IMG/VR virus record: IMGVR_UViG_2617270947_000017
Source of the DNA: a virus
Taxonomy: Duplodnaviria > Heunggongvirae > Uroviricota > Caudoviricetes
Length of the DNA: 8,043 bases
Strand: one strand, 5' to 3'
The stretch's first letter is position 1; every line of letters begins with the position of its first letter. Position numbers and translations under genes: made by a program. Positions 1 through 8,043 of this stretch are shown here, in pieces. The notes under the pieces are model-generated. The model made no database searches and was not told the origin of the DNA. It saw only the letters and a list, made by a program, of their open reading frames with translations.

Positions 1-1254
1 ATGCCAAAACTCACAGATATGCAGATCCGCGCATGGATAAAGGCGGGAAACAGATTTGATGGCAAGGCAGACGGCAACGGCCTTTATATTTGCTACCCCA
101 AAAACTACACAGTCCCGTTCTGGCGATTCCGCTATAAGCTCGCAGGAAAGCAGCGGGCTATGGTTATAGGCTCTTACTCCGAACTGTCACTATCAAAAGC
201 CAGAGAAACAGCAAAAGAGCTGTCAGCCAGAGTTGCTCTTGGCTATGACGTAGCAGCAGAGAAACAGGAACGAAAAGCTGAAGCACTGGCAAAAATGGAG
301 GCTGAGAAAAACGCCATGCGTGTTTCAGATCTGGCCTCCGAATACTTCGAGCGCCAGATACTTCCGAGATGGAAACATCCCGATATCCTTCGCCGGAGAA
401 TTGATAAGGATATTAACCCCTGCATTGGGCATATGAAGGTAGAGGACGTTAAGCCACGCCACATTGACGACATGTTGAAAGGTATCGTTGACCGAGGAGC
501 ACCAACGATAGCAACAGATGTATTACGCTGGACACGCCGTATCTTTGACTATGGGATAAAACGCCACGCTCTGGAGATAAACCCTTGTTCAGCGTTTGAA
601 GTATCTGATGCTGGTGGTAAAGAGGTTTCCCGCGACCGTTGGCTAACTCGCGATGAGCTTATCAGGCTATTCGAGGCTATGCGCACCGCAAAAGGATTCA
701 GCCGCCAAAACGAACTGACATTTAAACTATTGCTGGCACTATGCGTTCGTAAGATGGAGTTATGCGCCGCACGATGGGAAGAGTTTGATTTAGATGGTGC
801 GGTATGGCATTTGCCGGAAGAACGCAGCAAAAACGGAGACCCTATTGATATACCTCTACCTTCCCCAGCCGTTGAATGGTTGAGAGAGCTACACACCTTT
901 TCATGTAATAGCGCATGGGTGCTTCCGGCCAGGAAGATGCAAAACAGAATGATCCCACATATTCAGGAAAGCACTTTACCCGTAGCACTGGCTAAGGTTC
1001 GCGCCGAAATGCCGGATGTGCCTAATTTCACGATTCACGACTTCCGACGCACCGCACGTACTCATTTAGCAGCATTGGGTGTTGATCCTGTCGTGGCGGA
1101 ACGATGCCTCAATCATCGCATTAAGGGCGTAGAGGGGATTTATAACCGTCATCAGTATTTTGATGAGCGTAAAGCAGCACTGGCACAGTGGGCAGATCTG
1201 CTGGTGGCACTGGAAAGCGGAAAAGACTACAACGTAACGCCAATCAGAGCATGA
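1..1254 (+). CDS. Tyrosine site-specific integrase, P4-type phage integrase family (417 aa, appears complete)
   Basis: C-terminal catalytic region has the box II-like HDFRRTARTHL motif and the tyrosine region GIYNRHQYFDERKAALAQWADLL, which I recall as closely resembling the ...YNRSDYLEQRR...WADL tail of E. coli IntA-type P4 integrases. N-terminus (LTDMQIRAWIKAG...GLYICY...WRFRYK) fits the arm-binding domain of this family. ATG is at window position 1, so upstream context (att/tRNA) is not visible. Confidence 0.9.
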   Translation: MPKLTDMQIRAWIKAGNRFDGKADGNGLYICYPKNYTVPFWRFRYKLAGKQRAMVIGSYSELSLSKARETAKELSARVALGYDVAAEKQERKAEALAKMEAEKNAMRVSDLASEYFERQILPRWKHPDILRRRIDKDINPCIGHMKVEDVKPRHIDDMLKGIVDRGAPTIATDVLRWTRRIFDYGIKRHALEINPCSAFEVSDAGGKEVSRDRWLTRDELIRLFEAMRTAKGFSRQNELTFKLLLALCVRKMELCAARWEEFDLDGAVWHLPEERSKNGDPIDIPLPSPAVEWLRELHTFSCNSAWVLPARKMQNRMIPHIQESTLPVALAKVRAEMPDVPNFTIHDFRRTARTHLAALGVDPVVAERCLNHRIKGVEGIYNRHQYFDERKAALAQWADLLVALESGKDYNVTPIRA

Positions 1255-1272
1255 TGAGAGGAAATATTCATA

Positions 1273-2223
1273 ATGAAATTACCTGCGCATAAATATTATT
1301 CTTTGGATAAAGCAGCCAAACTGGCCGGATGTGAAGTATCCGATTTAATACACTATGCAGCAATTGGGGTTTTAGAAATATGTATAAAAATTCCACCTAT
1401 TGAATTGTTTTACCATTACCCAAAAAATGAAGATGCCGAGCCAGAATTACTTAAAGTTGAAACAGATAGTATTTTTCATATAGATACAAAAGCAGCACAT
1501 GAGAATTATCTCCTTGATCTGAGCAATAAGGCAGATAATCTCGAATCATATGGCTTATCATCACCTGATTATAAAAATAGCGATAACTATATGTATTTTA
1601 TGAGGTTTTCATACAAATCAGAACATTTCTCAGTTATAGAGCGATACAATGTTGGGAAGGATGAAAGAGATATCGAAAGATGGAGCGGTCTATTAGCAAT
1701 TCCGCCTGCGTTCATAGATAACGATGAGCGGGAGCTATCAGAATGGGATGATTGGGAGATCTCTGTATGCGAACTGATGCCTCCGAGATGTGACGAGTTT
1801 AGCAAATCGAATAATTATGAAATCGGAGCTTTTTATATTGACGGCTGGTATGAAATAAGCCGAAACAAAATGTATATAACTGACTATGAATACAATCTTC
1901 TTATAAATGGAGGAAAATATATTTATGACAGACCCATGCACAAACCATCCGCAAACAAGTTATCCAATGATATAAATACGCTAAAAGTTAATAAACGTGC
2001 CGAACGGTACGCAGTCAATAGGGAGAAACTATTAAAATCTGCAATTTATATACTTAGTAAGTATCCAAATGAATGCAGGGGAGAAAGGAAAGAAATAAGC
2101 CCTGAGAAGTGGCGTGACTGTCTTGTTCGTCATTTAGACGAAGTTCCACCACTTATGATAACTAATGAAGATGTAATTCTTAAACATCTACGATCTGCGG
2201 CAAATGGCAAAGTGGATAGTTAA
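1273..2223 (+). CDS. Hypothetical protein, AT-rich horizontally acquired cargo ORF (316 aa); possible N-terminal helix-turn-helix; function unknown
   Basis: Single uninterrupted 316-codon ORF; GAGG-containing RBS about 12 nt upstream of the ATG. GC by hand count on sampled 60-nt lines is about 25-33 percent, against about 45-50 percent in the integrase. Residues about 10-35 (YSLDKAAKLAGCEVSDLIHYAAIGVL) look like an HTH; the rest is rich in Tyr/Asp/Glu/Asn/Lys with no catalytic motif I recognise. Followed by a hairpin terminator. Size and position between int and alpA are reminiscent of yfjH in E. coli K-12 CP4-57 (recalled, not verified). Confidence 0.75.
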   Translation: MKLPAHKYYSLDKAAKLAGCEVSDLIHYAAIGVLEICIKIPPIELFYHYPKNEDAEPELLKVETDSIFHIDTKAAHENYLLDLSNKADNLESYGLSSPDYKNSDNYMYFMRFSYKSEHFSVIERYNVGKDERDIERWSGLLAIPPAFIDNDERELSEWDDWEISVCELMPPRCDEFSKSNNYEIGAFYIDGWYEISRNKMYITDYEYNLLINGGKYIYDRPMHKPSANKLSNDINTLKVNKRAERYAVNREKLLKSAIYILSKYPNECRGERKEISPEKWRDCLVRHLDEVPPLMITNEDVILKHLRSAANGKVDS

Positions 2224-2233
2224 CTTACTATAG

Positions 2234-2260
2234 AGGTACTGCAAAATTACAGTACCTTTT
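2234..2260 (+). terminator. Candidate Rho-independent terminator after the cargo ORF
   Basis: Stem AGGTACTG (2234-2241) pairs with CAGTACCT (2250-2257) around an 8-nt loop CAAAATTA, followed by a TTTT run ending at 2260; starts 11 nt after the cargo stop codon. The T tract is short, so strength is moderate. Confidence 0.5.
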
Positions 2261-2262
2261 CA

Positions 2263-2278
2263 TTGTATATCTATACAG
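2263..2278. promoter_or_regulatory. Palindromic operator-like site in the alpA upstream region (TGTATA-TC-TATACA; resembles an SOS/LexA box)
   Basis: 2264-2277 is a perfect 6+6 inverted repeat with a 2-bp centre. The 16-mer TTGTATATCTATACAG (2263-2278) matches the recalled LexA consensus CTGT-(AT)4-ACAG at 14 of 16 positions, but position 1 is T rather than the conserved C. Lies between the cargo terminator and the alpA start, overlapping weak candidate promoter hexamers (TTTTCA...TAGATT). Confidence 0.3.
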
Positions 2279-2329
2279 CTAGATTTCTCGTAACGAAGCA
2301 ACAACTATCGCTAAGAGGTTACGGGAATC

Positions 2330-2533
2330 ATGAACATCGACACTATCCCTACAAAAGGCTATATCAGACGCTTTCGCCTGGCTGAATTGCTGGGCGTTAG
2401 TGTATCCACCATCGACCGTAAAGTAAGAAACGGTTCACTACCACGTCCGGTAAAGCTGGGAGAAAAAATAACTGCGTTTGATGCGGTTGAGATTCACAAC
2501 TGGCTGGCAGAACGCCGCGGGAAGGTGGCCTGA
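2330..2533 (+). CDS. alpA: AlpA-family phage transcriptional regulator / excisionase-like HTH protein (67 aa)
   Basis: RFRLAELLGVSVSTIDRKVRNGSLPRPVKLGEKITAFDAVEIHNWL matches the AlpA/HTH_17 pattern (HTH, then G.FP.P.KLG, then a tryptophan-containing tail). Typical size and position downstream of a P4-type integrase. Confidence 0.85.
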   Translation: MNIDTIPTKGYIRRFRLAELLGVSVSTIDRKVRNGSLPRPVKLGEKITAFDAVEIHNWLAERRGKVA

Positions 2534-2964
2534 TGGAAAAGAAAAACCGCCCATTACAGGCGGCTAATTCAGATATTCGCGTATCTGATATTACGCCCCT
2601 TACAAAATCACTTCAAGCACCAAAGCGCACACCGAAAAAGCATCGTGCCCGAGTCTATATGCTGCGTACTGGTATAGAGGGATGGACAGAAAATGACATT
2701 CTTCGCTACTGCCGTCTGTCTTCTGGTCGTAACTATGCAACAGAGTTAGAACGCCAGCTTGGAATCACTCTGGAGCGTATCGACGAAAAGAATCCTGATG
2801 GTATCGGAACACACCTTCGCTACCGTTTCTCCTGCCGTGGTGATGTTCTGAAAGTGATCACTCATGTTAACCATCTTGCGAACATAAATGATCACAACGG
2901 ACTTTCTCAGCAGGAAATTGCCGACATTCTGAAACTCTACCCGGACGCGTTTAACGCCGCCTAA
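2533..2964 (+). CDS. Hypothetical protein (143 aa), translationally coupled to alpA
   Basis: ATG overlaps the alpA TGA stop (ATGA at 2531-2535). Basic N-terminus (PKRTPKKHRAR) suggests nucleic-acid binding. No motif I can assign. Confidence 0.65.
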   Translation: MEKKNRPLQAANSDIRVSDITPLTKSLQAPKRTPKKHRARVYMLRTGIEGWTENDILRYCRLSSGRNYATELERQLGITLERIDEKNPDGIGTHLRYRFSCRGDVLKVITHVNHLANINDHNGLSQQEIADILKLYPDAFNAA

Positions 2965-2976
2965 CGGAGACTGAAA

Positions 2977-3810
2977 ATGAACATCGAAAAAAGCAGATTA
3001 ATTTCTGAGGCCGCCCCTCATCTGAACGCCTCTCTGGGCACAATTAACGGTAATGAATTTGCCGCAATTGTCCCGGTTATTCCTGGTCATATCGGTGGGC
3101 GTGAAACCAATATTGTTAGCGCAAAAGCGTTACACAAAGCGTTGGGCGTGGGAAAAGACTTCTCTACATGGATCACTGATCGCATCTCTGAATATGACTT
3201 CACCATTGGGCACGATTACTCAGTCCATAAAACTATTTCCCCAAATTTGGGGAAAAGCCCGAATAGCGCGGCTTACAGCAAGATTAAGCACTCTGGCAGA
3301 CCCGGTAAAGACTATCTGTTAAGTGTCGGAATGGCGAAAGAACTGGCAATGATCGAACGCACCGAACAGGGCCGCGCTATCCGCCGTTATTTCATCCAGT
3401 GCGAGGAAGAATTACAGCGTAGCGTGCCTGAAATCGCCGCCCGCTATCGTCGCCAGCTAAAAGCCCGTATCAGTGCCGCAAACAACTTTAAGCCGATGTG
3501 TGATGCGCTGAATATGGCCCGTGCCGAGCTGGGTAAAACGACGCAGCAGCGCCACTACAGCAACGAGAGCAACATGATCGCCCGTATCGTGCTGGGTGGC
3601 ATGACGGCGAAGCAGTGGGCGCAGGCAAATGGCATTACTGGCGAACCACGGGACAGCATGAACGCAGCACAGCTTGAACACCTCGCCTATCTCGAAAGCA
3701 CCAATATCACGTTAATTGATATGGGCATGGAATATGAGCAGCGCAAAGGAGAACTCACCCGCCTGTCGCAACGCTGGCTCGCCAAGCGTCTGGAGGCGGT
3801 CAATGTCTAA
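2977..3810 (+). CDS. Phage antirepressor-like protein (277 aa; Ant/KilAC-type motif)
   Basis: GGAG RBS 9 nt upstream of the ATG. Central motif DYLLSVGMAKELAMIERTEQGRAIRRYFIQCEEEL is one I recall from phage antirepressor (Ant/KilA-C-type) proteins. Exact domain assignment needs an HMM search. Confidence 0.7.
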   Translation: MNIEKSRLISEAAPHLNASLGTINGNEFAAIVPVIPGHIGGRETNIVSAKALHKALGVGKDFSTWITDRISEYDFTIGHDYSVHKTISPNLGKSPNSAAYSKIKHSGRPGKDYLLSVGMAKELAMIERTEQGRAIRRYFIQCEEELQRSVPEIAARYRRQLKARISAANNFKPMCDALNMARAELGKTTQQRHYSNESNMIARIVLGGMTAKQWAQANGITGEPRDSMNAAQLEHLAYLESTNITLIDMGMEYEQRKGELTRLSQRWLAKRLEAVNV

Positions 3811-3985
3811 GCCAACAGGAACACCACAACCTCAAAAACGCTACAAAGATGCCCACGGAGCACTCGTTACTGTCGAAAGCGTGTCTCACAACCGAGTGAC
3901 GTTTTATCGCGACGGGTATCAATCGCCATGCGTACAACCGCTGGCGCGTTTCATGAAGGAGTTCGCGGAGGTTAACAAATGCTAA
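3803..3985 (+). CDS. Small hypothetical protein (60 aa), coupled to the antirepressor gene; possibly DUF4222-like
   Basis: GGAGG (3792-3796) 6 nt upstream of ATG 3803; the ATG overlaps the antirepressor stop (3808-3810). Sequence MSKPTGTPQPQKRYKDAHGALVTVESVSHNRVTFYRDGYQSPCVQPLARFMKEFAEV. The longer reading from 3716 in the ORF track overlaps the upstream gene and is less likely. Confidence 0.6.
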   Translation: MSKPTGTPQPQKRYKDAHGALVTVESVSHNRVTFYRDGYQSPCVQPLARFMKEFAEVNKC

Positions 3986-5046
3986 CCGTCCAGAAGAACA
4001 CATTTTCACTGGCTGGTATGTCGCCAAAATCCAGCAATATGACAGCAAAGTCAGGTATTAATACAGCAGATACAAGCAAAATTTATCATTTGCTGGTGGT
4101 AGGAGCGGATGCCTTAACTATGTCAGAAATTACGGGCGATGAAGTTAGCGTTGAGAAGGTCAGCGGCTGCGCCAGAGAATTTCTGGTCGTAGATGACTTT
4201 CTCTGCTCGCGTAGTGACTCCACAAAAACCTTCGTCCACACGCGCGACGTTAACGAAATGAGCGCGATGTATTGTGCATCTGGTGCTTCCAATAGTGAGT
4301 TTTCGGAGTCCATAAAAAAGAGCTTGCCGTTATGCGGCAACACGGTTTATGGTTATAAGGCACCTCATAAAACGGGTGCCGGGATTGGCGTCCTGGTAAA
4401 TCGAATGGCGACATATGACGCGCCGAGCGTCTTTTTTTATGTCGTAGGTCTGACTCACCCATTTTTTGGGCGTTGGTGTATAATCCAGCGCCTTTGTCAA
4501 TCAATGGTGGCTCAGGCAGGGGCTTCTTCGGAAGCGCCGGTATCCATTCGAGCCGGTTACGCCAACCCTGTCTGGGCTACCACCAGCGAAATTGGCGTTT
4601 CCGGTGGTAGCGTTACATGCTATCGAATGGAGGCTGCCACATGCTGGCTACTACCCCTACCCAAAAACCGCAATTTATCTGGATTATCGCCGCAGTTCGC
4701 CGCGATTGCCCGACAATTACCGCCAAAATTCATCATATTGCTGCCGAGTCTGAACGCGATGCTCGCCGTTCTCTGGTGCGCGATCACGTCTGCTTTTTTG
4801 CTGGTCGTATCCGCATGGAGGTGGCTCATGATTAAAACCTACGATGTGCATATGGATCCCCTCGAACGCACAAGCCAGATCATCACACTGACAGAAGTGA
4901 TTAACGACATTCTGGTGAGCAACTCTCCCTCACGAGACGAAAGACTGAAGGCGTTACTCGCGATATTGGATCTCGCCGTTCGTGACGTTCATTTCCTGCT
5001 GGAAGGTGGCGAAATGCCAGGAAAAACGGGGGCAACCAATGAATAA
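3979..5046 (+). CDS. Uncertain: long frame-1 ORF (355 codons), probably not one protein; 5-prime part about 3979-4430 looks coding, remainder ambiguous
   Basis: GGAGG (3966-3970) 8 nt upstream of ATG 3979, which overlaps the previous stop. Codon pattern in about 4060-4420 looks coding (G-rich first positions, common codons). The same frame then passes through a hairpin plus T7 (4417-4438) and a TGTATAAT element (4477-4484), and over 4641-4828 is rich in rare codons (CTA, AGG, ATA, CGA, TTA) while frame 3 looks coding. Frames 2 and 3 carry stops at 4313, 4293/4296/4356 and 4445. Confidence 0.3.
4417..4438 (+). terminator. Candidate intrinsic terminator (5-bp GC-rich stem plus T7) inside the long frame-1 ORF
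   Basis: GACGC (4417-4421), loop GCCGA, GCGTC (4427-4431), then TTTTTTT (4432-4438). Orientation fits the + strand only. Confidence 0.4.
4479..4484 (+). promoter_or_regulatory. Candidate -10 hexamer TATAAT (with upstream GTG) for the small-ORF/primase operon
   Basis: Perfect TATAAT at 4479-4484 preceded by GTG; no good -35 at 16-18 bp spacing, which would fit an activator-dependent promoter (possibly AlpA-dependent; inference). About 155 nt upstream of the ORF starting at 4641. Confidence 0.25.
4641..4835 (+). CDS. Small hypothetical protein (64 aa), first of the coupled small-ORF chain
   Basis: GGAGG (4629-4633) 7 nt upstream of ATG 4641. Frame-3 codons are typical enterobacterial (CTG, GCC, CGC, ACC, GAT) whereas the overlapping frame 1 is rare-codon rich. 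Sequence [64 protein letters not shown]. An alternative start at 4617 is possible. Confidence 0.55.
   Translation: MLATTPTQKPQFIWIIAAVRRDCPTITAKIHHIAAESERDARRSLVRDHVCFFAGRIRMEVAHD
4828..5046 (+). CDS. Small hypothetical protein (72 aa), coupled to the upstream ORF
   Basis: GGAGG (4817-4821) 6 nt upstream of ATG 4828; the ATG overlaps the upstream TAA by 8 nt (ATGATTAA). Shares frame and stop with the long frame-1 ORF, so it could instead be the C-terminus of a longer product. Confidence 0.5.
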   Translation: MIKTYDVHMDPLERTSQIITLTEVINDILVSNSPSRDERLKALLAILDLAVRDVHFLLEGGEMPGKTGATNE

Positions 5047-5233
5047 CTCAATTAATACCCCTCGCCTTACGTCCGCACTTCAATTAATCGAGCAAGCAGC
5101 GGCTGTCCTGGTTGCTGTCAGTCTTTCGGCTGAAGAAATGGACGCTGCTGATGTCGTGGATGCGATTAAAGCGTGCTCATCTTTGGTTAACGATGCCCGT
5201 GCCGAGCTGGTAATTCTTGGGGGTGAAAAATGA
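5039..5233 (+). CDS. Small hypothetical protein (64 aa)
   Basis: GGGGG (5028-5032) 6 nt upstream of ATG 5039; overlaps the previous stop by 8 nt. The ORF track's longer start at 4982 would overlap the upstream gene by about 65 nt and lacks an RBS. Sequence [40 protein letters not shown]... Confidence 0.55.
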   Translation: MNNSINTPRLTSALQLIEQAAAVLVAVSLSAEEMDAADVVDAIKACSSLVNDARAELVILGGEK

Positions 5234-5493
5234 ATATCAACTTAATTTATCGTCATCCGTGTGAGCTGGAAATTGAATCATTGCTGGGGCGCGAAGAGCC
5301 ATATCCAGACACATTCACTCCCGCAGATTGCGCGACTGAACGGCTTACCAGAGCGCGCACAGGTCTGGTTCATGTGATGAATGAGATTGTTCCCTCGGTG
5401 GGAGGGGAACAGGCGACAGTAATCAATAGCTGGCTACAAAAAGTTACCTCCCTGATAGATATCGGTTTAATCGATGTGGAGAGTGCGAAATGA
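5230..5493 (+). CDS. Small hypothetical protein (87 aa)
   Basis: ATGA start/stop overlap with the upstream ORF (5230-5233); GGGGG 6-10 nt upstream; coding-like codon usage. Confidence 0.65.
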   Translation: MNINLIYRHPCELEIESLLGREEPYPDTFTPADCATERLTRARTGLVHVMNEIVPSVGGEQATVINSWLQKVTSLIDIGLIDVESAK

Positions 5494-5711
5494 CCAACAT
5501 CCAGCTCATTGAAGCGCAATGTCGCATCGAACAGGTTCAGACTGTTTTAGGGTTCTGGCTTGAAAGGGCCAGCCCCAGCAACAGAGACAAGTTAATGATT
5601 GGCGCGGTTATGTCACTGCTCAATGGCGTACCAGAAGCTATTCAGGAAGCGGACGAATTGTTGGGCAAATATGAGTTACAGAATCATTCAGGCGAGGCGA
5701 AACATGAATAA
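5490..5711 (+). CDS. Small hypothetical protein (73 aa)
   Basis: ATGA overlap with the upstream ORF (5490-5493); GGAGAG upstream. Confidence 0.65.
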   Translation: MTNIQLIEAQCRIEQVQTVLGFWLERASPSNRDKLMIGAVMSLLNGVPEAIQEADELLGKYELQNHSGEAKHE

Positions 5712-6306
5712 TTTCTTAACTTTCCATGCAGAAGCAACGCCTGACGGCGTAAACATCATGCACCGCAGCAACGATGGCATGACAGAACGCGTTGAGACCG
5801 TCTCATATATTGATGCCGTAAATCGTCTGGATGCCGGGGATTATGACGATAAACCAGATGAAGGCATGTTTATACATCTCGCTATTGCCAGTGGCGGCAA
5901 CCAGGGATATTTCGATTACACATCACAGCATCACGTGATTATGTGGCGCTGGCTGATAGCAACAGCATTCATCAATGAAATGAGAAAGGAAAACGGCACC
6001 GTCAGCATTATTGATGACAGTGGCAATCATTCCGTGGTTTCTGTTTATTCCAATGGCATCGTCGCCATGCCGCTGTATCCAGTAGCAGAGCGCCTCGCTA
6101 TGGCAAACAACATTGAGGGCGCAATGATCGAGAAATATGGTGTTGATGTCGGAACAAAGAATGCCATCATTTTTTACAGCAACATGTTCGATGTCGAACA
6201 GGGAACACTCACTTCGTTTGGGCGAGAAGTGCTTGCCGATCTTCACAACAGCTTTATTGCCGAACTAAACGAAAACGGCATCCCAGAAGCACCAGTGACG
6301 CACTAA
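5704..6306 (+). CDS. Hypothetical protein (200 aa) immediately upstream of the primase
   Basis: GAGG (5693-5696) 7 nt upstream of ATG 5704; 8-nt overlap with the upstream stop. The ORF track's start at 5599 would overlap the previous gene by more than 100 nt. Stop at 6304-6306 is 12 nt before the primase start. Confidence 0.7.
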   Translation: MNNFLTFHAEATPDGVNIMHRSNDGMTERVETVSYIDAVNRLDAGDYDDKPDEGMFIHLAIASGGNQGYFDYTSQHHVIMWRWLIATAFINEMRKENGTVSIIDDSGNHSVVSVYSNGIVAMPLYPVAERLAMANNIEGAMIEKYGVDVGTKNAIIFYSNMFDVEQGTLTSFGREVLADLHNSFIAELNENGIPEAPVTH

Positions 6307-6318
6307 ACGGGGGCCAGA

Positions 6319-6882
6319 ATGCGAAACATTGATCTTATCCGTCAGGTTATCAGTGCGTCTGAAAACAACTGGCCTCATGTGCTGGGCTGCCTGAACATAA
6401 ATGTCCCTGACTCTCCGCGCCGTCATGCTCCCTGCCCTGCATGTGGGGGTAAAGATCGATTCCGGTTCGATGACAACGGGCGCGGTAGCTTCATCTGTAA
6501 TCAGTGCGGCGCTGGTGATGGGCTGGATTTAATTAAACGCGTAAATAACTGCGACACAACAGAGGCGGCGCTTCTTGCCGCTGATGTTCTGGGTATTGAT
6601 TACCGGACAACGGAAACACCAGAAGCCACCAGCCAGAAACGGGAACAACTGGAAACCGAGCGCCAGCGACGCGAACAGGAGCGCCTGAAAAGGGCAGAGA
6701 AGGACGAACAACAAAGACGGGCTACGTTTTCCCGTCAGTTTGATGACATGCGCAGAAAGGCCGTAAATGGCAAATCTGATTATCTGGTTGCGAAAGGGGT
6801 AGGTGATTTTACATTCCCCGTGTTGCCAGATGGATCTCTGTTGCTGGCGCTGGTGAACCGCCCCGGGAATCCTGGAGACTAA
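6319..6882 (+). pseudogene. Primase N-terminal fragment (P4 alpha-like zinc ribbon plus start of TOPRIM), interrupted by an IS element at about 6853/6854
   Basis: CPACGGKDRFRFDDNGRGSFICNQCG is a CxxC...CxxC primase zinc-ribbon motif; SDYLVAKGV...[15 protein letters not shown] resembles the start of a TOPRIM domain. The reading frame runs into the IS terminal repeat, so the last codons (NRPGNPGD-stop) come from IS sequence. Primases of this type are normally several hundred residues longer. Confidence 0.7.
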
Positions 6883-6907
6883 ACTCCCTGAGAAAGAGGT
6901 AAACAGG

Positions 6908-7234
6908 ATGACTAAAAATACACGTTTTTCCCCCGAGGTCCGTCAACGGGCAGTTCGTATGGTTCTGGAAAGTCAGGGCGAATATGACTCACAATGGGCG
7001 GCAATTTGTTCCATTGCCCCAAAGATTGGCTGTACGCCAGAGACTCTGCGTGTGTGGGTTCGTCAGCATGAGCGGGATACCGGGAGTGGTGATGGTGGAT
7101 TCACCACCGCTGAACGTCAGCGTCTGAAAGAGCTGGAACGTGAAAATCGTGAACTGCGCCGCAGTAACGATATCCTTCGCCAGGCTTCCGCTTATTTTGC
7201 GAAGGCGGAGTTCGACCGCCTCTGGAAAAAATAA
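6908..7234 (+). CDS. IS3-family transposase OrfA (HTH/leucine-zipper subunit), IS629-like (108 aa)
   Basis: [57 protein letters not shown]... matches my recollection of IS629/IS1203 OrfA almost residue for residue; ends [36 protein letters not shown]. Confidence 0.9.
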
Positions 7235-8043
7235 TGCCACTGCTGGATAAGCTGCGTGAGCAGTACGGGGTCGGACCGGTATGCAGTGAACTGCATATTG
7301 CCCCGTCAACGTATTACCACTGTCAGCAACAGCGACATCATCCTGATAAACGCAGTGCCCGTGCGCAGCGCGATGACTGGCTGAAGAGAGAGATACAGCG
7401 CGTATACGATGAAAATCATCAGGTGTACGGTGTGCGTAAAGTCTGGCGCCAGTTGTTACGCGAAGGTATCAGGGTGGCCAGATGTACAGTGGCGCGCCTC
7501 ATGGCGGTTATGGGACTTGCCGGTGTTCTCCGGGGTAAAAAGGTCCGTACTACCGTCAGCCGGAAAGCCGTTTCCGCAGGCGACCGCGTAAACCGTCAGT
7601 TCGTGGCAGAACGACCTGACCAGCTGTGGGTGGCTGATTTTACTTACGTCAGCACATGGCGGGGCTTCGTCTATGTGGCGTTCATCATTGATGTGTTTGC
7701 CGGATACATTGTGGGGTGGCGGGTCTCATCGTCCATGGAGACGACATTCGTGCTGGATGCACTGGAGCAGGCGTTATGGGCCCGTCGACCGTCCGGCACG
7801 GTCCATCACAGTGATAAAGGTTCTCAGTATGTATCGCTGGCCTACACACAGCGGCTTAAGGAAGCCGGATTACTGGCATCAACAGGAAGTACAGGCGACT
7901 CGTATGACAACGCGATGGCGGAGAGCATCAATGGTCTTTACAAAGCTGAGGTAATACACCGTAAGAGCTGGAAAAACCGTGCAGAAGTGGAACTGGCCAC
8001 ACTCACGTGGGTGGACTGGTATAACAATCGACGATTGCTGGAA
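7234..8043 (+). CDS. IS3-family transposase OrfB (DDE/rve catalytic subunit), IS629-like; partial, runs off the window end
   Basis: Frame-1 reading from ATG 7234 (overlapping the orfA TAA) is open to the window end (270 codons). Hand translation gives [21 protein letters not shown]...DQLWVADFTYVSTWRGFVYVAFIIDVFAGYIVGW...HSDKGSQYVSLAYTQRLKEAGLLASTGSTGDSYDNAMAESINGLYKAEVIH..., with the DDE-integrase hallmarks. Not in the ORF track because no stop lies within the window. Confidence 0.9.
   Translation, partial: MPLLDKLREQYGVGPVCSELHIAPSTYYHCQQQRHHPDKRSARAQRDDWLKREIQRVYDENHQVYGVRKVWRQLLREGIRVARCTVARLMAVMGLAGVLRGKKVRTTVSRKAVSAGDRVNRQFVAERPDQLWVADFTYVSTWRGFVYVAFIIDVFAGYIVGWRVSSSMETTFVLDALEQALWARRPSGTVHHSDKGSQYVSLAYTQRLKEAGLLASTGSTGDSYDNAMAESINGLYKAEVIHRKSWKNRAEVELATLTWVDWYNNRRLLE

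Follow-up and report, generated by a model that had tools for sequence, protein, structure and literature searches.

A probable P4-type immunity switch nested in the long 'Ash' reading frame of an element resembling the phage satellite EcCIMP1

In the satellite P4, a constitutive promoter lies inside the eta gene, the transcript made from it ends early by way of interactions of the CI and seqA RNAs, and Kil is a truncated form of Eta, as PMC10111431 states with reference to Forti 1999. According to the same paper, full-length Eta is translated exclusively from transcripts of a late promoter farther upstream, in coupling with the alpA homologue; it reports, again citing Forti 1999, that translation of eta stops termination from occurring and that nonsense mutations in eta bring it on. 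Here we describe a locus of this known kind, a P4-type immunity switch nested in an eta/'Ash' open reading frame (ORF), at positions 3979-5046 of an 8,043-nt stretch of caudoviral DNA (IMG/VR record IMGVR_UViG_2617270947_000017), the whole of which is called the window below. The window is an integrated element whose genes read in order from integrase to primase; it probably carries the regulatory and replication module of a phage-inducible chromosomal island (PICI) like EcCIMP1, with 3979-5046 as its P4-type immunity region. There is one notable variation from the known kind of locus, kil/icd being out of frame with eta.

The immI region of phages P1 and P7 (c4 RNA, icd, ant) provides a second point of comparison, since it too has a C4 RNA with the elements a' and b' and the targets a1/b1 and a2/b2. 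In P1, a2/b2 cover the icd ribosome-binding site, and variation in the loop gives heteroimmunity. The two arrangements differ in that the antirepressor gene follows icd in immI and is translationally coupled to it, whereas a gene of the AntA family stands upstream in the window, and we know of no description of an eta-like ORF over c4 in P1. The isrK-orf45-anrP region of Gifsy-1 in Salmonella resembles the window in having an RNA of the isrK family with its own terminator. Read-through at isrK yields a longer transcript with a processed downstream RNA (STnc1160) and a short ORF, and IsrK is a structural homologue of the P4 seqA RNA (PMC4825925). Gifsy-1 differs, however, in that IsrK acts there in trans, activating translation of orf45/anrP, and in that the output is the antiterminator AntQ; neither anrP nor antQ is present downstream in the window.

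EcCIMP1, the PICI of E. coli MP1 (helper phage Kapi1), is experimentally characterised (PMC11773190). Window positions 2523-6304 are 93% identical to it, and both have, in the same order, the helix-turn-helix (HTH) gene, a 143-aa gene, AntA, DUF4222, ash, icd, small ORFs and the primase. The open frame of 355 codons recurs in EcCIMP1, as does the pac-like 22-mer, without a single mismatch. A further relative of the window is an island adjoining yicC in E. coli SW070919, which is 99.65% identical over window positions 1-6855. EcCIMP1 departs from the window in its integrase and attachment site (tRNA-Thr at proA, as against a site next to yicC for the window's relative), in immunity specificity, the a and b elements both being swapped, and in that the window primase is cut by an element of the IS3 insertion sequence family. 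In PMC11773190, which was not searched for immunity RNAs, 'Ash family' occurs once and neither 'Icd' nor 'pac site' occurs.

The elements follow the same order in P4 as in the window, with isrK, C4, Icd-like and Phage_ASH matches in both (Table 1). In P4 the isrK match lies at 8692-8615 and the C4 match, which we take to be the CI RNA, at 8507-8420; an ORF at 8812-8168 (214 aa), presumably eta, spans isrK, C4 and the Kil/Icd-like end in one frame. In both elements the long ORF begins upstream of the internal promoter, which is putative in the window, and spans the whole array, and the next gene is overlapped by 8 nt. The window differs in that its downstream gene is not epsilon (no PF25738 match), in that the N-terminal part of its ORF is unrelated and carries a fragment of P22 gene 3, and in that 282 nt rather than 327 nt separate the start of the leader from the icd ATG, the spacer between leader and C4 being shorter. 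What the initial annotation of this DNA missed is that the ORF in its entirety corresponds to something conserved and already known, the eta/'Ash' frame of P4-type immunity regions.

The C4 match extends over the full Rfam model, and the fold of 4500-4587 has a minimum free energy of -47.2 kcal/mol (z -5.8). In 31 distinct sequences the outer stem and first hairpin keep every one of their 22 pairs, and 14 of these pairs show compensatory changes; five pairs of the second hairpin were left out of this count because they are fixed by the search pattern and hence uninformative. The downstream site b2 overlaps the Shine-Dalgarno (SD) sequence of icd, GGAGG at 4629-4633. Loci with the C4 core pattern, gathered from viral contigs, contain 23 different b' loops, for which the mean cognate perfect duplex is 7.4 nt at the upstream site and 7.9 nt at the downstream site. 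Most of these loops form 8-10 nt with both of their own sites, as against about 1% of non-cognate pairs, and the C4 loop and both targets co-vary across the 23 loop types. Between the window and the loci of E. coli 83972 (L003) and EcCIMP1 (L145), divergence of about 30% is confined to 4386-4640, a stretch that takes in the 3' half of the leader, the spacer, C4 and the targets beyond it. The alignment is free of indels, and on either side the sequences are almost identical. Within this stretch a/a' change from TTGGCGT/ACGCCAA to TTCGCAG/CTGCGAA and b/b' change in concert; the difference looks like the swap of an immunity cassette.

The leader ahead of C4 matches the isrK/seqA model; the related c4-a1b1 Rfam model reached only 17.9 bits, against 46.7 needed. 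The initial annotation had pointed to a terminator-like hairpin with a T7 run within the frame, and this is borne out by a terminator scan: it is the intrinsic terminator of isrK, with T7 as its U-tail. The T6 run and the TATAAT element reported further on are likewise present. A putative constitutive promoter sits just upstream of the start of the isrK model, its hexamers suitably spaced from that start; TTGnnn/TAnnnT hexamers fall in the same alignment columns across diverse loci, and 4324-4359 is invariant among 13 close relatives of the window. The 9-bp hairpin that holds the TATAAT element in its loop is confined to loci of the long-spacer class. Relatives show what seem to be co-varying changes in its stem, and it may serve as another promoter for C4, as a signal for processing or in some further role. 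On the opposite strand, a terminator-like hairpin at 4340-4324 followed by a T run (window 4314-4340) overlaps the putative -35 element and might halt antisense transcription coming into the operon.

That frame 1 is open throughout 3979-5046, as had been remarked, is indeed hard to ascribe to chance. It contains its terminal stop alone, as compared with 17 stops in frame 2 and 18 in frame 3, and when the window was shuffled 300 times, the longest open run had a mean of 147 codons and a maximum of 262; since 0/300 reached 356 open codons, the 355-codon ORF is not a chance product. Its ATG overlaps the stop of the DUF4222 gene and thereby suggests that translation may be coupled to the upstream operon. 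The frame is uninterrupted in 12 of the 13 other distinct close relatives; in 11 of these its length is 1068 nt, and the twelfth lacks 39 nt of the spacer. On a wider scale, the Ash frame between the isrK 5' end and the icd ATG is free of stops in 72/72 unique enteric-type loci, where the other two frames have on average 1.7 and 3.7, and shuffled versions of the segment are open 3% of the time. Its five length classes (240, 243, 282, 288 and 327 nt) are all multiples of 3, and the frame is still open in every one of the 72 loci when spacer, loops and post-C4 sequence differ by about 20-30% between immunity types. Among seven divergent, apparently non-enteric C4 loci, six carry stops in the Ash frame; hence the long ORF belongs to the enteric P4/PICI group rather than to C4 in general.

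The coding signal of this frame had been described as mosaic, and substitution among the 13 close relatives agrees with that description. Coding-like change in frame 1 is restricted to 3979-4323, with omega (the ratio of non-synonymous to synonymous rates) at 0.45, and to 4836-5043, at 0.27; over 4360-4640 omega is 0.75-2.5. The frame-3 ORF noticed opposite frame 1 over 4641-4828 proves to be a genuine Icd-like gene. Over 4641-4827 the constrained frame is 3 (omega 0.22), not 1 (omega 1.97), and the variable sites of icd are distributed 13/8/37 among the codon positions; despite its omega, frame 1 has no stop over icd in 14 diverged members. As judged from these substitutions, there is no amino-acid constraint on frame 1 over the RNAs or icd. 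Of the three explanations originally offered, a non-coding region and overlapping genes both apply at once, the former to 4360-4640, as the isrK-like leader and C4/CI antisense RNA locus, and the latter to 4641-4835, as icd; the third, a frameshifted gene, is not supported, for reasons given below.

As the first translated gene after the putative internal promoter, icd overlaps the long ORF out of frame, within a frame-3 open stretch at 4617/4641-4835. In most loci, as in P4, icd begins in the Ash frame. In the clade of the window its ATG lies at +105 from the C4 anchor instead of +106 (CTGCCA-CAT), and icd is thus out of frame; because the ATG is 1 nt nearer to C4, the eta frame crosses icd in +1 and joins the next gene, which makes up the 355 codons. 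The gene after icd is in the +1 frame and has an 8-nt overlap with the icd stop; depending on the member, the eta frame is joined in this way to one of four unrelated downstream genes. In the window the partner is an independent 72-aa gene that shares the frame of the long ORF and supplies its C-terminal 73 codons, those with the omega of 0.27; it found no match in Pfam and PHROGs searches. The ORFs that follow icd, of 72, 64, 87 and 73 aa, gave no match to an Ant family. One related locus (L138) has a 10-nt tandem duplication, TCGCCGCAGT, at the equivalent of window position 4686, inside icd, which breaks both icd and the eta frame.

The RNAs, their targets, icd and the 72-aa gene rest on sequence and family tests, and the steps of the mechanism proposed here are drawn from the biology of P4, P1 and Gifsy-1. 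By analogy with these systems, the internal constitutive promoter (about 4324-4353) would make the leader, and read-through with processing would yield a stable C4 RNA. Pairing of C4 with a1/b1 and a2/b2 would block translation of icd and cause premature termination, which would keep the downstream replication genes, such as the primase, silent. The long frame-1 ORF would be the counterpart of P4 eta. Beginning upstream of the internal promoter and coupled to DUF4222, it would be translatable only from transcripts of the upstream operon, and the passage of ribosomes through the terminator, C4 and its targets would render those transcripts insensitive to immunity. Selection would then act on the frame staying open, not on the peptide. 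The pattern of substitution and openness fits the idea, put forward for P4 eta, that translation through the region matters, and we infer the same for the window element. It is tempting to go further and to regard the eta/'Ash' ORF as a pure 'ribosome track', kept stop-free and in register, with indels in multiples of three, but without peptide constraint; in the EcCIMP1-like clade this track would have shifted into +1 relative to icd and become continuous with the gene that follows. To this more specific proposal, which remains tentative, we would give slightly less than an even chance.

Alternatively, the open frame may be a by-product of no consequence, if conserved GC-rich RNA genes and icd just happen to be stop-free and are never translated through. 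The RNA cores are conserved, so that a stop-free state would be inherited; of the Icd-like clusters whose +1 frame is not used by eta, half have it open; and the stops in the divergent non-enteric loci indicate that C4 function as such needs no ORF. We nevertheless consider this explanation unlikely, because openness and a length divisible by three are kept in the variable parts as well, because the 39-nt deletion found in one relative is in frame, and because the start codon has a strong SD sequence and is coupled to the upstream gene. In P4, moreover, stop codons introduced into eta by mutation reportedly lead to termination (Forti 1999, according to PMC10111431).

Another view would be that 3979-5046 encodes a genuine 355-aa 'Ash family' (Bro-network) protein with a functional sequence, the RNA-like features being incidental or secondary. 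Such a protein would account for the full-length ORF in 12/13 close relatives, for the good SD sequence and ATG and for the weak purifying selection in the first 115 codons; hundreds of 'ash family' proteins of 320-375 aa are recorded in E. coli, Klebsiella and Pluralibacter, and a curated Pfam family exists. However, synonymous bias is lacking precisely over 4360-4640, and over icd it is frame 3 that is constrained. The Pfam domain coincides with the two Rfam RNAs. The N-terminal part cannot be aligned between lineages, that of the window includes an antisense terminase fragment, and Pfam and PHROGs searches with its 123 aa returned no family match. The Prokaryotic Genome Annotation Pipeline (PGAP) itself divides the same sequence in other genomes into a pseudogene, icd and the 72-aa gene. 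AlphaFold2 (AF2), given 57 homologues, predicts no fold for residues 1-237 (mean predicted local distance difference test score, pLDDT, 32.6; no secondary structure before residue 238), and the 72-aa C-terminal part is the only region with helices and pLDDT >50, the low confidence stemming from a shallow alignment and being weak evidence for that reason. Taken with both sides in mind, a functional 355-aa protein appears very unlikely. A frameshifted or mis-sequenced gene, with slippage at T7 or T6 having fused separate genes, or a decaying pseudogene, is scarcely credible: homopolymer runs exist, and in some genomes the ash ORF is listed by PGAP as a pseudogene, but those calls fall on sequences in which the frame is actually open; T7, accounted for as the isrK terminator tail, is exactly 7 T in 14/14 distinct relatives; the duplication in L138 is the only frame-breaking lesion among 14 copies and lies away from any T run; the relatives open at the same 1068 nt, the one with the in-frame deletion and EcCIMP1 all retain the frame; and a 1-nt shift at T7 would, as had been claimed, end at the frame-2 TAG at 4445-4447, which is present and leaves no longer ORF to be gained, no conserved stop near 4440 being found in the relatives compared.

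Several points nonetheless weigh against the eta-like role that we prefer for the long ORF. The kil gene of P4 makes up the 3' portion of eta and is read in the same frame, whereas in the window icd lies in another frame and the eta frame enters the next gene. P4 is the only element for which termination by Rho, and its suppression by translation, are known. The putative constitutive promoter internal to the ORF has been placed by inference from position and sequence, and a scan for the sigma-70 consensus listed neither this isrK promoter nor the TATAAT at 4479. The weak purifying selection on the first 115 codons (omega 0.45) means that part of the product may matter as a peptide. Finally, synonymous resampling over icd gives a probability of 0.09-0.15 per sequence for an open +1 frame, and this frame is open in 6/12 Icd-like clusters whose eta frame is the icd frame, as compared with 7/7 in the clade of the window, which is a single lineage. 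In view of this base rate of about 50% in other Icd-like genes, the argument from stop avoidance over icd has been downgraded, and the case for selection on openness of the +1 frame there is no more than suggestive.

The nature of the locus also bears on its annotation. Pfam family PF10554 (Phage_ASH) matches residues 124-232 of the long ORF, corresponding to nt 4348-4674, with 105.2 bits against a gathering threshold of 26, and the matched DNA is the isrK, spacer and C4 region. In P4 (locus L124, 7888-8584) the same family matches the historical 'cI'/eta ORF over the CI RNA and not epsilon, which matches PF25738. The 'cI' ORF of P4 is contained in the 214-aa ORF at 8812-8168. A survey of P4-like satellites used PF10554 as its marker for 'epsilon' (bioRxiv 10.1101/2021.03.30.437493); this component of the survey probably detects the immunity region instead.

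Table 1. Features of the immunity locus and of its surroundings (window coordinates)
Feature	Position	Strand	Details
Eta-like long ORF	3979-5046	+	ATG 3979, stop 5044-5046; 355 aa; PGAP 'ash family protein' WP_032150410.1
Start context of long ORF	3967-3985	+	SD GGAGG 3967-3971; ATG 3979-3981 overlaps DUF4222 TAA 3983-3985 (ATGCTAA)
Putative PLE-like constitutive promoter	4324-4353	+	-35 TTGCCG 4324-4329; -10 TATGGT 4348-4353; start near 4360
isrK / P4 seqA-like leader RNA	4360-4438	+	Rfam RF01394, match 4360-4437, 67.1 bits (gathering 50), E 4.5e-13
Leader target site a1	4385-4391	+	TTGGCGT
Leader target site b1	4401-4408	+	TCGAATGG
Intrinsic terminator of isrK	stem 4417-4431, T7 4432-4438	+	Terminator scan, fold
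9-bp hairpin	4468-4493	+	TGTATAAT in loop (TATAAT 4479-4484); preceded by T6 run 4462-4467; fold of 4440-4500 z -2.4
C4 / P4 CI-type antisense immunity RNA	4500-4587	+	Rfam RF01695, 79.5 bits (gathering 45), E 7.7e-15, full model 1-87
C4 recognition element b'	4543-4551	+	TCCATTCGA, hairpin loop; complementary to b1 4401-4408 and b2 4623-4631
C4 recognition element a'	4559-4565	+	ACGCCAA; complementary to a1 4385-4391 and a2 4592-4598
seqC-like downstream targets	4592-4633	+	a2 TTGGCGT 4592-4598; b2 TCGAATGGA 4623-4631
Icd/Kil-like gene, 64 aa	4641-4835	+	Frame 3; NF033153, 71.3 bits (cut-off 25); WP_001304881.1 in relatives
Independent 72-aa gene	4828-5046	+	Own SD GGAGG 4817-4821, ATG 4828; annotated separately as WP_000598361.1
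P22 gene 3 (small terminase, PF16677) antisense fragment	4127-4233	-	About 107 nt, about 90% identical to central part
pac-like 22-mer	4212-4233	-	Window GAAGGTTTTTGTGGAGTCACTA, annotated P22 pac GAAGATTTATCTGAAGTCGTTA; 16/22
Integrase gene	1-1254		
316-aa AT-rich gene	1273-2223		Between integrase and AlpA-like gene; GC 31-40%, about 49% in flanks
AlpA-like HTH gene	2330-2533		
AntA antirepressor gene	2977-3810		Upstream of long ORF
DUF4222 gene	3809-3985		Directly upstream of long ORF
Chain of small overlapping genes	between long ORF 3979-5046 and primase		
Primase gene	from 6319		

The N-terminal part of the long ORF contains the fragment of P22 gene 3 listed in Table 1, with its pac-like 22-mer. 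From this DNA similarity, 4127-4233 may imitate a pac site for helpers whose terminases are of the P22 gene-3 type; the packaging mechanism of EcCIMP1 is described as unknown in PMC11773190. The minus-strand ORF at 4086-4343 was considered as a terminase remnant and rejected, as it is without protein similarity to TerS, the similarity being at the DNA level on the antisense strand. Kapi1, the helper of EcCIMP1, was likewise discarded as the source of the fragment, there being no DNA similarity between the window and Kapi1.

Elsewhere in the window, the low-GC gene for a 316-aa protein, which gave no match in Pfam and PHROG searches, is possibly cargo. The primase gene is split by the IS3-family element at about 6856-8043 and is whole in the otherwise 99.65% identical island of SW070919. 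Within this element, orfA of the transposase runs from 6908, and Rfam places an ALIL frameshift pseudoknot at 7189-7305 with 120.9 bits.

Recognition of the locus gives EcCIMP1-like satellites a concrete and testable immunity mechanism, with specificity types that can be read from the C4 loops, 23 of which are represented here. In thousands of enterobacterial genomes the region carries the label of a single 'ash family protein', of a pseudogene or of a 'transcriptional repressor'. Such labels mask two regulatory RNA genes, a putative internal promoter and a terminator, and the small icd gene, and the mislabelling feeds a Pfam family that is used as a marker for a different P4 protein, epsilon. 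The out-of-frame position of icd amounts to a natural experiment on whether eta works through translation alone. If the eta/'Ash' ORF were indeed a pure ribosome track, PF10554 would largely represent two translated RNA genes rather than a protein domain, and the act of translation, not the sequence of Eta or Kil, would be what overrides RNA-based immunity in these satellites.

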